A stretch of DNA of 64,000 bases from Candidatus Poribacteria bacterium (GTDB lineage: Bacteria > Poribacteria > WGA-4E > WGA-3G), in assembly GCA_963663765.2 (NCBI GenBank), contig CAXXUA010000002.1:224001-288000 (forward strand), in the 5' to 3' direction. The position numbers and the translations under genes were made by a program. Below, in pieces: positions 14,924 through 56,088 of this stretch. Positions within the stretch are counted from its first letter, which is position 1. Each line of letters begins with the position of its first letter. The notes below the pieces were generated by a model. That model had not been told where the DNA came from and searched no databases. It was given only the letters and a program-made list of their open reading frames with translations.

Positions 14924-16235
14924 TGCTTGGTTTGAATGTGATTCAGGATGTACCTATCCACTCACTGAAGTCATCTATCGTTGCAAAAACTGCGATGGTC
15001 TATTAAAGGTCAATCACGACTTAGATGTGTTGAAGCAAAGAAGTGCGGATGATTGGAAAACTCTTTTTGAACAACGTTATATGCGAACACAATACCCGTA
15101 TGGTAGCGGTGTTTGGGGGAAAAAGGAACTTGTTTGTCCTATAGTTGATGATAACAACATTATCTCAATGTATGAGGGTGGCACGAACTTGTTCTGGGCA
15201 GAACGTTTCGGTGAACAACTTGGACTCCCAGACCTTTGGATAAAACAGTGTGGTAATAGTCATACCGGTTCATTCAAAGACCTTGGAATGACAGTGTTGG
15301 TTTCTATGGTGAACCAGATTATATCAGATGGTGGAAATATACGAGCTGTCATGTGTGCTTCTACGGGTGATACTTCTGCCTCTTTAGCAGCTTATACTTC
15401 TGCAGCGGGAATCCCAGCTATTATCCTGCTACCTAAAGAGAAGGTTACCCGCGAACAACTTATCCAACCGATTGCTAACGGTGCATTGACCCTATCACTT
15501 GAAACCGACTTTGATGGATGCATGGATATCGTTCAAAAACTTGCTGCACGAAATGATTTCTATTTAGCAAATTCAATTAATTCACTTCGTATTGAAGGAC
15601 AGAAAACTATTAGTATTGAAATTGTACAGCAGTTTGATTGGGATGTACCTGATTGGATAATCATCCCTGGCGGTAATCTTGGAAATGTCTCTGCACTCGG
15701 TTTAGGTTTCCTAATGATGAAGCAACTTGGGATAATAGACAGACTACCACGTATCGCATGTGCCCAAGCAGAGCGCGCCAACCCACTCTATCGCAGTTAT
15801 AAAACTGGGTTCACGGAGTTTAAAGCCATCACAGCACAATCAACACAAGCAACAGCTATCCAAATCGGTAATCCTGTTTCAATTCACCGAGCAATACGTG
15901 TCTTGAAGCAGTTTGATGGCATTGTAGATCAAGCATCTGAAGTAGAATTAGCAGACGCCGCCGCAAGAGCTGATAGAACTGGACTCTTCAACTGTCCACA
16001 CACAGGCGTAGCATTAGCTGTACTCATAAAAATGATAGAACGAAAACAGATACAAAAAACTGAAAAAGTCATTGTCATTTCAACTGCTAATGGCCTCAAA
16101 TTTCCTGATTTTAAAGTTGCATATCATAATGTTGTTCCTAATGAATCCGCCCCGAAATATTATAACGCCCCAATTGAATTAGAAGCGAACTATGACAATG
16201 TACTCAAGCAAATAGACAAACAACTGAATGTGTAG
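14913..16235 (+). CDS. thrC: Threonine synthase
   Basis: HTGSFKDLG (PLP Lys), CASTGDTSAS, NSINSLRIEGQKT, PGGNLGN; ATG 14913 follows AGGAGG. Confidence 0.9.
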   Translation: MNYNAWFECDSGCTYPLTEVIYRCKNCDGLLKVNHDLDVLKQRSADDWKTLFEQRYMRTQYPYGSGVWGKKELVCPIVDDNNIISMYEGGTNLFWAERFGEQLGLPDLWIKQCGNSHTGSFKDLGMTVLVSMVNQIISDGGNIRAVMCASTGDTSASLAAYTSAAGIPAIILLPKEKVTREQLIQPIANGALTLSLETDFDGCMDIVQKLAARNDFYLANSINSLRIEGQKTISIEIVQQFDWDVPDWIIIPGGNLGNVSALGLGFLMMKQLGIIDRLPRIACAQAERANPLYRSYKTGFTEFKAITAQSTQATAIQIGNPVSIHRAIRVLKQFDGIVDQASEVELADAAARADRTGLFNCPHTGVALAVLIKMIERKQIQKTEKVIVISTANGLKFPDFKVAYHNVVPNESAPKYYNAPIELEANYDNVLKQIDKQLNV

Positions 16236-16284
16236 GGTGTGCAAAGTTTTGGTTGCTGGACGTAGGGGCGGGGTCTCCCTGCCC

Positions 16285-16427
16285 CATAGGCGTCAATTTA
16301 AGAAAAAAGTGTTGGCATTTTCTCTTTTGGGAGGGGTTTTCAACCCCGATTTTATGTTCATTTTCTCTCAAATCGGGGTTGAAAACCCCTCCTACAAGAG
16401 GTCAAAACCCTTAAATTGACGCCTATG
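16285..16427. mobile_element. MITE C1 (TIR CATAGGCGTCAATTTAAG) inserted in a REP hairpin, 19-bp duplication
   Basis: Perfect 18-bp TIRs; GGGCGGGGTCTCCCTGCCC at 16266-16284 and 16428-16446. Confidence 0.85.
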
Positions 16428-16545
16428 GGGCGGGGTCTCCCTGCCCGAACAGAAGTTTTACGCGGGCGAGGAAACCTCACCCCTACGATGTCCACAGTTC
16501 CCTAACGTCAAGTAAGCTTTGATAGTAACTGGACGGACTTCTTTT

Positions 16546-16667
16546 CAGAACTTACGCACCCAACGGTAGGCGCGCTTTGTAAGCGCGCTGGAAACCGAAA
16601 AAATGCTGAAAATTACACCATTTTCGTCATAATTCTTCATCAAATCATGAAAACTGCGTAAGTTCTG
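16546..16667. mobile_element. MITE D1 (TIR CAGAACTTACGCA), 5-bp TSD CTTTT
   Basis: TIRs; CTTTT at 16541-45 and 16668-72; the A copy starting at 63834 shows the empty site with one CTTTT. Confidence 0.85.
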
Positions 16668-16714
16668 CTTTTAATATCAGAGTTTCTACAAAAACTTTAC
16701 ACACCCGAATGTGT

Positions 16715-17075
16715 CAGGGTTATTCAGTTTTAGGAGTTTTCTGTTATTGAGACTTACTGAAAGTTAATACCCAAATGAGGTTTCCTAACTGCCCCTTATA
16801 CATCAATTTTAGATTATTCAAACATGAACATCGCTCTTTAAGTCCCGTAGGGACGACATGTTTATAGAAAACGAATACCCTCCCCAGCTCTTTAGTCCCG
16901 TAGGGACGATATGTTTATTCTTCTATGCCGTTCCTACGGAACTCAAGAGAGTTAGATAACATTTTTCTATAAACATATCGTCCCTACGGGACTAAAGACA
17001 CGGACAAGATGGCAACACATAAAATTAACGTCATAGCAAAAAATCATCAAAAACACCTAGAACTAAATAACCCTG
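16715..17075. mobile_element. MITE B1 (TIR CAGGGTTATTYAGTT), 9-bp TSD CGAATGTGT
   Basis: TIRs; CGAATGTGT at 16706-14 and 17076-84; internal AGTCCCGTAGGGACG repeats. Confidence 0.85.
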
Positions 17076-17091
17076 CGAATGTGTAAAAACT

Positions 17092-29395: not shown

Positions 29396-29472
29396 AATAT
29401 TATCGGTCTGCCACTTGTGAAATTTCCAACCTTAAGAAACGAAAGAGTTGATAGACTGTATTTATGTCTAAT

Positions 29473-29837
29473 CAGGGTTATTTAGTTTTAGTAGTTTTTG
29501 CAGATATTTATAACATTCGTGAATTAGATGTGTAGGTCGGGTAGAGCGATAGCGAAACCCATAGGTGTCAACTTAAGAAAAAAGTGTTGGCATATTCTCT
29601 TGTGGGAGGGGTTTGTAACCCCGATTTGAGTGGAAATGAACATAAAATCGGGGTTGCAAACCCCTCCCACAAGAGGTCAGAATCCTTAAGTTGACACCTA
29701 TGGGTAGAGCGATAGCGAAACCCGACATGTATTGATTGTAGTTGTCATGTCGGGTTTCGCTATCGCTCTACCCGACCTACGATATAAACTTAAAGTAACA
29801 CCCATCAACTGATAATTCTTAAAACTAAATAACCCTG
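29473..29837. mobile_element. MITE B2 with REP doublet; hosts C2
   Basis: CAGGGTTATTTAGTTTTA...TAAAACTAAATAACCCTG; flanks ATGTCTAAT / CTGTCTAAT; body matches B3 at 55887. Confidence 0.85.
29560..29702. mobile_element. MITE C2 (TIR CATAGGTGTCAACTTAAG) inserted in a REP hairpin, 20-bp duplication
   Basis: GGTAGAGCGATAGCGAAACC at 29540-59 and 29703-22; uninterrupted REP in B3 near 55947-55978. Confidence 0.85.
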
Positions 29838-29854
29838 CTGTCTAATTCTATTAG

Positions 29855-44523: not shown

Positions 44524-45036
44524 GGGTGTGTAAAGTTTTTGCACAGAGGTACTAACTTTTGTTCTCTTTAGTCCCGTAGGGACGCAATGTTTATAGAAAG
44601 ACGTTATCACATCCCTCTCTTTAGTTCCGTAGGAACGATATAGAAGGATAAACATATCGTCCCTATGGGACTGAAGAATATGGTTAATATTAACAATATT
44701 TCTTTATATTGACACCTAATGAGGTTTGACAATCAAAATCGGTAGTTGAATTCGTAGGGGTTGGGTTCCCCAACCCGTTGGTTTTTGAGTTTGCGTAGAA
44801 CATGTGTGGAAACCACGTCCCTACGAATACACAACTTGAACGTCAAAACTCATTAGGACTCTGTGTCCGCAATCTCTCATTTAATCAGTTGCGGCGGGGC
44901 ACAGAGACCCGGGGAATGCCAAAATGGCATTCATACCCGGGGAATGCCAAAAGGCATTCATACCGTTGATTTCTTGATTACTTGATTTCGCCCTACAATG
45001 GAGAGTGGGATGTTTGTGCAAAAACTTTACACACCC
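44524..45036. mobile_element. Composite MITE A2 containing element E (44715-44857) and a hairpin insert (44910-44988)
   Basis: TIR GGGTGTGTAAAGTTTTTGCACA; TCATGTTTAC duplicated at 44514-23 and 45037-46; inner TIR CCTAATGAG.TTTGAC; near-identical to A3. Confidence 0.85.
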
Positions 45037-55440: not shown

Positions 55441-55869
55441 GGGTGTGTAAAGATTTTGCACAGAGGTACAAACTTTTTTCTCTTTAGTCCCGAAGGGACG
55501 CAATGTTTATAGAAAGACGTTATCACCCCTCTCTTGAGTTCCGTAGTAACGACATAAAAGGATAAACATATCGTCCCTACGTGACTGAAGCGTATGGTTG
55601 ATATTAACAATATTTCCTTATATTGACACCTAATGAAGTTTGACAATCAATCGGTAGTTGAATACGTAGGGGTTGGGTTCCCAACCGTTTGGTTTTTAAG
55701 TTTGCGTAGATCGGGCGTGGCAACCACGCCCCTACGAATACACAACTTGAACGTCAAAACTCATTAGGACTCTGTGTCCCCGCAATCTCTTATTTAATCA
55801 GTTGGGGCGGGCACAGAGCCCCGCCCTACAATGAAGAATGAGTAGTTTGTGCAAAACTTTTGCACACCC
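55441..55869. mobile_element. Composite MITE A3 containing element E (55629-55768)
   Basis: TIRs; GTTAAACTA at 55432-40 and 55870-78. Confidence 0.88.
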
Positions 55870-55886
55870 GTTAAACTATTAAACTA

Positions 55887-56088
55887 CAGGGTTATTCAGT
55901 TTTAGATATTTTGGCAGATATTTATAACATTCGTGATTTAATATCGTAGGTCGGGTAGAGCGTGAGCGAAACCCGACATGATAGACAAAATCAATACATG
56001 TCGGGTTTCGCATACGCTCTACCCGACCTACTATATAAACTTTAAGTAACACCCATTAACTGATAATTCTTAAAACTAAATAACCCTG
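55887..56088. mobile_element. MITE B3 with REP doublet
   Basis: TIRs; ATTAAACTA at 55878-86 and 56089-97. Confidence 0.88.

Follow-up and report, generated by a model that had tools for sequence, protein, structure and literature searches.

Two copies of a 143-bp element lie in a 64,000-nucleotide stretch of a Candidatus Poribacteria genome (assembly GCA_963663765.2, contig CAXXUA010000002.1, positions 224,001 to 288,000, or C2:224001-288000; hereafter the window). Each copy interrupts a repetitive extragenic palindrome (REP), and in each case the direct repeat that flanks the element is the REP stem-loop itself. The locus thus raises the question of what the element recognizes in its target and what sets the length of so long a target-site duplication. 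The initial annotation, made from the letters of the window, proposed a transposase that recognizes cruciform structure rather than sequence, gives unusually long, variable duplications and multiplies REPs as a by-product. We followed up this proposal in the window, in the rest of the assembly (6.35 Mb, 15 contigs, 97.8% complete), in related genomes and in public sequences. [quoted passage not shown]

Reading of the sequence and an end-motif search agreed with each other, and with the initial annotation, on two 143-bp elements with perfect 18-bp inverted ends. MITE copy 1 (16285..16427, plus strand) has ends that we call C-type: the left terminal inverted repeat, CATAGGCGTCAATTTAAG, occupies 16285..16302 (+) and the identical 18 bases are found at 16410..16427 (−). 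The element folds as one long hairpin (−47.8 kcal/mol, z −12.3). It is flanked by two identical copies of a 19-bp REP stem-loop, GGGCGGGGTCTCCCTGCCC, with an 8-bp stem and a 3-nt loop (16266..16284 and 16428..16446), and the GTAG tag of this hairpin stands directly to the left (16262..16265, +). An inverted and unoccupied partner REP, GGGCGAGGAAACCTCACCC followed by CTAC (16464..16486, −), forms a REP doublet with 16262-16446, and positions 16464-16482 in it are the empty sister of target 1. MITE copy 2 (29560..29702, 143 bp, +) has T-type ends, CATAGGTGTCAACTTAAG on both sides, and lies in one arm of a two-armed REP doublet (29532-29780). This arm consists of GTAG, GTCGGGT, a 14-nt loop and ACCCGAC, and the cut points (marked here and below by slashes) are symmetric in the stem, GTCG/GGT...ACC/CGAC. 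The tag and the outer stem half GTCG remain at 29532..29539 (+), and the 20-bp duplication GGTAGAGCGATAGCGAAACC (29540..29559, with an identical right copy at 29703..29722) comprises the inner 3 bp of the stem, the loop, and the inner 3 bp of the stem again. Both flanking repeats are therefore REP stem-loops cut at symmetric stem positions, as had been annotated. The right arm of the same doublet is intact (29746..29780, −) and contains an empty target at 29753-29772 (−). An empty site had also been noted initially. An uninterrupted doublet of the target 2 family lies at 55946..56031 (−43 kcal/mol, z −14.7); its two unoccupied arms hold the empty sites 55954-55973 (+) and 56004-56023 (−).

The targets have the features of GTAG-tagged REPs, that is, a palindrome of 20-40 bp, an unpaired GTAG at one end, apparently a high copy number and, often, an arrangement in inverted pairs. 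Examples are GTAG/GGGCGGGG..., GTAG GTCGGGT...ACCCGAC, and the doublets 29532-29780 and 55946-56031; GTAG or CTAC flanks recur at many targets. The end motif (up to 3 mismatches) was matched five times in the window, with 0.22 matches expected, and five matches were reached in 0 of 100 shuffled sequences. Both window copies are intergenic, and open reading frames (ORFs) of at least 80 aa overlap neither of them. Inverted-repeat positions 7 and 13 distinguish the two copies, and each change is mirrored at the opposite end, in line with the compensated changes noted initially. The pattern is general: of 118 elements of the genome, 102 carry one and the same variant on both sides. Related full-length elements carry the same variants, and the C-type and T-type ends mark subfamilies. 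The annotated boundary uncertainty of 1 bp is real where a G precedes the repeat; copies with another base at this position settle it and fix the element limits as CATAGG...CCTATG.

Genome-wide, 519 matches to the end motif were found at up to 3 mismatches. They form 194 inward-facing pairs, 124 of which span 138-146 bp, and the unpaired ends all proved to be MITE fragments (107/107). A flanking repeat of 18-21 bp (up to 2 mismatches) was present in 118 of the 189 pairs of up to 1300 bp: 62 elements have a repeat of 19 bp, 53 of 20 bp, two of 21 bp and one of 18 bp. The duplicated stretches of these 118 elements are diverse, with 87 distinct sequences that belong to 47 target families, and the flanking repeats are therefore genuine target-site duplications. 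With a length of 143 bp, perfect 18-bp inverted repeats, 124 copies, target duplications, no ORF, and ends equal to those of an IS described below, the window elements can be classed as members of a family of at least 120 non-autonomous MITEs. Identical twins exist for 34 of the 124 copies, which indicates that amplification was recent, though the transposase is now missing.

The initial annotation presumed an autonomous IS with the same ends. In this genome the partner transposase has no tblastn match at E 1e-3 or better, a survey of phylum genomes counted 0 partner homologues in it (genome G000), and a broad motif scan of the genome for the partner produced noise only. As the genome is without a transposase gene of this kind, its MITEs are orphans. 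The autonomous IS is, however, present in related genomes. A public scan with the 18-nt end motif gave at least 110 loci, and complete elements were found at two Poribacteria loci among the matches listed. The first (L066:2601-4051, 1451 bp) contains a 438-aa ORF and is flanked by GGGTTAGGTTACCTAACCC (19 bp) inside a GTAG...CTAC REP; the second (L036:2601-4070, 1470 bp) contains a 442-aa ORF and is flanked by GTGCGGTTTCCTAACCGCAC (20 bp). The left end of the MITE resembles the left end of the IS (a match of about 22 bp) and its right end resembles the right end of the IS (about 25 bp). Copies 100% identical to the L066 transposase are present in one genome of the window's genus. Partner homologues were found in 48 of 151 sampled Poribacteria genomes, including 25 of the 37 other genomes of the window's genus and 20 of 57 of the sister genus, with at least 11 copies in some genomes.

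Several candidates for a partner within the genome were considered and rejected, each of the longer ones being either a MITE with another IS in it or ends paired by chance. An apparent element of 1807 bp (C4:1180654-1182460) consists of a MITE into which an unrelated IS has inserted. This inserted IS has a 470-aa transposase and ends GCTTACTTTTACC and GCTTACTTTTACCCATAAG, and it duplicates about 8-9 bp. It exists in 4 copies, of which the one within the MITE differs from the other three by a 1-base deletion in the transposase reading frame. An end pair at C13:433033-434587 encloses an ABC-transporter gene. Five other IS groups, with transposases of 388 aa, about 370 aa, 433 aa, 463 aa and 472 aa (the last a DDE_Tnp_1_4 protein), have different ends.

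The L066 and L036 proteins match Pfam DDE_Tnp_1 with 78-85 bits and the NCBIfam IS4 equivalog NF033592 (transpos_IS4_1) with 210.1 and 201 bits, above its curated cut-off of 115. Residues D119, D191, E324, R320 and K331 are invariant among 26 aligned homologues. The resulting DDE spacing of 71 and 132 residues fits the IS4-family definition D(60-110)D(100-150)E of De Palmenaer et al. 2008 (PMC2266710), and the motif R-x3-E-x6-K is present. As in other IS4-family elements, there is a single ORF without frameshift (438 or 442 aa) and the ends begin with 5′-CA (CATAGG...). The duplication departs from the roughly one-turn length of the family (7-13 bp), being 18-21 bp in the 118 MITEs and 17-20 bp in 67 of the 90 full-length copies examined. 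An AlphaFold model (pLDDT 75) has as its best match the Tn5 transposase 1MUH (E 4.8e-8, TM 0.44 over 414 columns, identity about 9%). Sequence searches of solved structures with the single protein and with a profile gave nothing meaningful, and Tn5 was reached via the fold search only. In a tblastn search of plasmids the nearest genes are from Chloroflexota (34-35% identity), followed by 674 Bacillus records with about 24% identity over nearly the full length, some of them annotated as IS231-type transposases. The protein family comprises 1878 clusters at E 1e-10 or better, almost all unnamed; one is named 'IS4 family transposase [Candidatus Poribacteria bacterium]'. We conclude that the MITE partner is an IS of about 1.45 kb. 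Its transposase, 438-442 aa long, is a DDE enzyme of the IS4 family that has a Tn5-like predicted fold and distant, full-length homology to IS231.

Duplication lengths of the full-length IS were determined, at up to 2 mismatches, in a set of 30 loci, one per genome, and in a set of 60 copies from eight genomes. Twenty of the 30 loci have a duplication (2 at 17, 1 at 18, 12 at 19 and 5 at 20 bp), the remainder being degraded (4), without a duplication (4) or without a second end (2). A duplication is present in 47 of the 60 copies (5 at 17, 9 at 18, 16 at 19 and 17 at 20 bp); 8 copies have none and 5 lack an end pair. Individual lineages are nearly uniform: duplications are 20 bp in 10 of 10 copies of G219 and 18 bp in 7 of 7 of G241, in G274 five copies have 17 bp and a sixth has 18 bp, and G222 has four at 19 bp, one at 18 bp and one at 20 bp. 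The 'unusually long variable' duplications of the initial annotation are thus long indeed; variability holds only in part, as the length is nearly fixed (±1) for a given transposase lineage. A more distant relative, which belongs to a different family within the order (41% identity; its ends are CATAGGGATCAAGTTAAGG), has duplications of 21 and 20 bp. The Chloroflexota plasmid copies (34-35% identity) have 20 bp in Ca. Chlorohelix and 19 bp in Herpetosiphon pHAU01. An association between MITE subtype and duplication length is seen when copies are counted (odds ratio 5.5, p 1e-4); we do not claim it, because it is not significant when distinct target families are counted (p 0.54).

The same 18-bp ends are also found on elements with short duplications. 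Among the matches listed in the 18-nt motif scan, Poribacteria pairs have duplications of 18-20 bp in 14 of 24 cases, cyanobacterial mini-elements have a perfect 9-bp duplication in 11 of 19 pairs, and pairs from other phyla have 9-10 bp in 3 of 7. The cyanobacterial elements are about 197 bp long (L002, L016, L023, L029, L047 and others; Tychonema, Microcoleus and Nostoc) and sit, with their 9-bp duplications, at the exact centre of 21-bp palindromes, ggacacGGCAGTGCCgtgtcc; their genomes yielded no matching transposase. A homologue of the transposase is absent in four of five genomes with 9-10 bp mini-elements, and the fifth, from Bacteroidetes, has a truncated copy with 33% identity. A search of 201 cyanobacterial genomes gave one weak match (28% identity). 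On a Chitinophagales contig (L073) the same end stands beside a different IS4-type ORF that is cut by the contig end; no further copy of it was found.

Next we consider what distinguishes the targets. Alignment of 94 half-sites from the 47 target families revealed G at position −1 in 69, G at +1 in 79, G at +2 in 73, G or T at +3 in 83 and T at −3 in 55. The target motif is therefore symmetric, (G)TNG/GGK...MCC/CNA(C). A site was counted as a hairpin when its folding energy (DNA energies) was better than the 5th percentile of random 36-mers. The core of the cut-site motif, with G at −1, GG at +1/+2 and T at −3, is common to hairpin and non-hairpin sites. Of the 37 target families, 27 are without a notable hairpin (together they hold 43 of the 104 copies), and yet their duplications are 19-20 bp long, which argues that the long stagger belongs to the transposase and not to a cruciform. 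The relatives behave likewise. In G222, five of six recent identical IS copies occupy non-hairpin sites with 18-19 bp duplications, and in G219 three non-hairpin sites have the same 20 bp as the seven hairpin sites. Where a site is not palindromic, the bases near its cuts are complementary little more than would be expected of half-sites independent of each other. We conclude that insertion does not need a hairpin and that the long stagger is not caused by one, and the initial proposal that a cruciform is recognized rather than a sequence was not borne out. Some extra preference for REPs remains, which may reflect structure, extended sequence or survivorship.

We infer the following course of events, the cut-and-paste step being taken from what is known of the IS4 family. 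The transposase would bind the 18-bp inverted ends and move the element by cut and paste. The two element ends would attack the target strands at points 17-21 bp from each other (some two helical turns, compared to the family norm of 8-13 bp, or one turn), and gap repair would then duplicate these 17-21 bp. The stagger distance is a property of the transposase lineage, with modes of 17, 18, 19 or 20 bp and a tolerance of ±1. The preferred site has two-fold symmetry, as would be expected for a symmetric transposase dimer. REPs would often be hit because their form, GTAG/GGG-stem-loop-stem-CCC/CTAC, fits the motif and because they lie at dispensable intergenic locations. As the hairpin itself is duplicated, each insertion would add a REP copy and regenerate the target. 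This agrees with the REP multiplication proposed initially: REP hairpins are frequent targets and one hairpin copy is added per insertion. The unit of MITE plus duplication also multiplies in tandem when the long direct repeats recombine or slip.

A number of observations weigh against this reading. Transposition is deduced here from the sequences. A precise orthologous empty site was not found in the nearest relatives, which are without the whole intergenic repeat blocks: in the two nearest, the flanking genes (79-94% identity) abut directly and the blocks at about 16235-17080 and 29471-29839 are missing, so that the repeat clusters were either gained in this lineage or lost in theirs. A clean duplication is missing in 45 of 144 short copies; we read these copies as probable recombinants, because their flanks look like halves of different targets. 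The transposase has an incomplete YREK signature in which the tyrosine is not conserved, position 317 being V in L066 and I in L036. The mover of the 9-10 bp relatives was not found, so that a different enzyme acting on the same ends is our supposition. Finally, hairpins are over-represented among the targets. They account for 10 of 37 families, where 5% would be expected, and for 61 of 104 copies (59%). Noncoding 19-bp motif sites are occupied in 12.2% of cases when strongly palindromic and in 2.8% otherwise, a difference of about four-fold in which REP family sequence and a crude coding proxy are confounders. Moreover, in REP families the length of the duplication (17, 19 or 20 bp) changes with that of the loop, with the cuts always at TCG/GG...ACC/CGA, which a rigid ruler by itself would not predict.

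These last points are what would be expected if the transposase recognized an extruded hairpin or cruciform and cut it at the stem base, so that the stem-loop would set the duplication length and sequence would be secondary. The symmetry of the cuts about the dyad of REP targets, the hairpin location of 30 of the 47 full-length copies with a duplication in the relatives (17 are elsewhere), and the occurrence of 9-bp relatives, too, at palindrome centres such as ggacacGGCAGTGCCgtgtcc favour the same idea. The families that fold no better than random 36-mers and still have 19-20 bp, and the non-hairpin copies of G222 and G219, are hard to reconcile with it. In the CGGCGGGGTACAGAGACCC repeat family, moreover, the hairpin is offset from the duplication and the cuts are asymmetric in the stem. 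Among noncoding 20-bp motif sites, palindromic ones are not enriched (1.3% occupied, 3.3% for the others, with the same confounders of REP family sequence and crude coding proxy). A preference for palindromes is, besides, already on record for IS4-family elements with normal duplications (PMC1525189). The dependence on loop length can be read differently: the cuts track the stem motif as the loop changes, which implies a ruler with a give of about 1-3 bp. Table 1 of PMC2266710 lists a comparable give for IS231, with 10-12 bp, and for IS4, with 10-13 bp. The initial annotation had made its cruciform idea hinge on whether most other copies lie in palindromes, and the outcome was divided, since a small majority of copies (61/104) are in hairpins and most distinct sites are non-palindromic. 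Altogether we regard recognition of a cruciform as unlikely.

The agent that sets the length could also be a host factor that bends or wraps the target, for instance a REP-binding protein, and not the transposase. Elements that share the 18-bp ends duplicate 18-20 bp in Poribacteria and 9-10 bp in other phyla, a difference that could be due to host or to enzyme. Such a factor is quite improbable in view of the lengths of 17, 18, 19 and 20 bp that coexist by lineage within one genus, of the 19-20 bp found likewise with Chloroflexota relatives of the transposase, and of the short duplications of other ISs of this genome, e.g. about 8-9 bp for the IS inside the MITE. Still less credible is that the flanking repeats were not made by insertion at all, a REP copy travelling with the element or hairpins being placed by REP-associated tyrosine transposases or by recombination. 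The genome does contain 6 matches to the Y1 transposase family and many GTAG-tagged REPs, and tandem arrays do grow by unit duplication. However, the 87 differing repeats, some of them unique non-repeat sequence, always abut the element ends exactly, the full-length IS behaves alike at unrelated sequences in other genomes and in Chloroflexota plasmids, and intact single copies of targets exist. Insertion by a transposase with a lineage-specific, roughly two-turn stagger thus remains the preferred reading.

Classification of DDE transposons makes use of the target duplication length, which is taken to be constant within a family. For IS231A, a symmetric GGG-N5-CCC target consensus was reportedly described by Hallet et al. 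in 1994. The IS231 subgroup of the Bacillus cereus group, with its MIC231 derivatives, is the known system closest to the one described here: both have a single-ORF DDE transposase, the transposases share about 24% identity over their full length, and CATAGGYGTCAAYTTAAG fits the subgroup end signature CAT-------AA--TAA listed in Table 1 of PMC2266710 at 8 of 8 conserved positions. The IS231B copy on plasmid pMC95 starts with CACATCCATCAACTTAAGG, identical to the T-type end at 13 of 18 positions. Non-autonomous IS231 derivatives, the MIC231 cassettes, are moved in trans (PMC6199540), and target specificity of IS231 elements is mentioned in PMC2266710. In the latter source, the subgroup is characterized by close similarity (many pairs above 50% identity) and by duplications of 10-12 bp; the present IS differs in its identity of about 24%, in its 17-21 bp, in the lack of a conserved YREK tyrosine and in its hosts, Poribacteria and Chloroflexota. 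That paper (De Palmenaer et al. 2008) also describes the IS4-family duplication as about one helical turn and removes groups with a partial YREK motif from the family, as families of their own. IS1634 and IS1549, relatives of IS4, are described there as having long repeats of 8-514 bp with no fixed length, in contrast to the ±1 per lineage found here; NCBIfam IS1634 matches the IS transposase with 36-44 bits, below its cut-off of 100. Tn5 (IS50, 1MUH) resembles the present IS in predicted fold, DDE triad and R-x3-E-x6-K and differs from it by 9-bp duplications.

Insertion into REPs has precedents. ISRm22, an IS4-family element, inserts into a REP palindrome symmetrically about the dyad, with 10 of 10 copies in REPs (Tobes and Pareja 2006, PMC1525189). 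According to the same paper it duplicates 6 bp at the axis, and other REP-targeting ISs 0-3 bp, whereas here the whole stem-loop of 17-21 bp is duplicated, so that the REP is regenerated twice rather than broken. The GTAG-tagged REPs and doublets described by Di Nocera et al. 2013 (PMC3733652), palindromes with GTAG ends that often occur as opposite pairs, correspond to the frequent targets and not to the element. The best precedent for lineage-specific long duplications, by functional analogy only, is the IS1202 family, whose subgroups have 5-6, 16-17 and 27-28 bp, in steps of about a whole turn (Siguier et al., bioRxiv 10.1101/2022.12.17.520857; Hall group, PMC10132070). That family has an unrelated transposase and different ends, and its short-duplication subgroup targets Xer sites. 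An IS1202 model was not among the Pfam and NCBIfam matches at E<=0.01, the presence of such a model in either library being unchecked.

The literature searched, which did not cover ISfinder or the figures and supplements of PMC2266710, contained neither 17-21 bp duplications in an IS4/IS231-like clade nor descriptions of Poribacteria ISs, and a 2024 MITE survey (PMC11602168) mentions neither Poribacteria nor IS4. As far as these searches could tell, an IS231-like clade with a two-turn stagger has not been described previously. We lean slightly towards the broader view that such a clade of the IS4 family, found in Poribacteria and Chloroflexota and extending down to 34% identity, shifted its stagger from one to about two helical turns and now has lineage-specific rulers of 17, 18, 19 and 20 bp, its ends being shared with relatives that duplicate 9-10 bp. 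If this is true, the clade provides a natural allelic series in which to learn how the length of the duplication is determined in DDE transpososomes. Since close relatives by ends and fold differ two-fold, and sister lineages by single base pairs, the geometry of target capture becomes directly testable. It would also be a case of a transposon that copies REP hairpins rather than destroying them. Insertion with long duplication helps to explain the build-up of repeat-rich intergenic regions in sponge-symbiont genomes, and annotation tools that look for duplications of 2-15 bp will miss such elements or misplace their boundaries.

Direct repeats of 17-21 bp left behind by insertion seed tandem arrays. 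In such arrays adjacent MITEs are separated by one duplication, and 13 of 15 adjacent pairs are mutual best or near-best matches, 98-100% identical and in the same orientation, from which it follows that the arrays grew by unit duplication between long direct repeats. The other two pairs are dissimilar (72-83%), and these, like arrays of mixed element sizes, are independent insertions into a regenerated target. The long duplication probably drives rearrangements, copies with flanks from different targets being common. At two loci of related genomes with a full-length IS (L138 and L141) the element lies between REPs that have identical stems and a loop that is inverted on the left relative to the right (GTGCGGTTTCCCAACCGCAC vs GTGCGGTTGGGAAACCGCAC), as expected if the segment was inverted by recombination between IS copies in oppositely oriented REPs.

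Other repeats were noted next to the window elements. Copy 1 is followed just downstream, at about 16715-17076, by a repeat of some 360 bp; this has at least 7 further copies at 92-96% identity in the genome and many at 80-90% in genomes of the same genus. Just upstream of the REP doublet of copy 2, at about 29472-29504, there is a terminal fragment, CAGGGTTATTTAGTTTTAG..., of an IS with a 388-aa transposase and 10 full copies elsewhere in the genome. End-like sequences occur in further dispersed repeats. One of these, with ATTAGGTGTCAATATAAAG/GG, is present in the window at 55617-55634 and about 44703-44720 (C2:279634 and C2:268720) and in at least 40 copies genome-wide, with a conserved flank TTCAACTACCGATTTTGATTGTCAAACTTC before it and GAAATATTGTTAATAT... 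after it. In a second set of at least 12 copies, CATAGGTGTCAATATAAGG always adjoins the same target-like flank, GGGCACAGAGACC. Both sets look like composites that fossilised half of a related element.

The genome also contains longer non-autonomous derivatives of 340-1148 bp (C2:50379-51526, C4:650664-651783, C5:742802-743706 and about 12 shorter ones). They share the ends of the MITE, in a slightly asymmetric form (...TTAAG vs ...TTAGC), and have duplications of 19-20 bp. A public scan with the 29-nt left end of such a derivative gave 0 matches. Their size is set by an internal minisatellite with a 32-50-bp unit that contains the hairpin GCGCGCTTACAAAGCACGC, which is itself one of the target types. 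Finally, the left third of the MITE (GATAGGTGTCAACTTAAG...GGGAGGGGTTTGTAACCCC) is repeated in tandem, with a period of 68 bp, at C10:12229-12992 and C5:1742809-1743155; these arrays represent a satellite born from part of the MITE.

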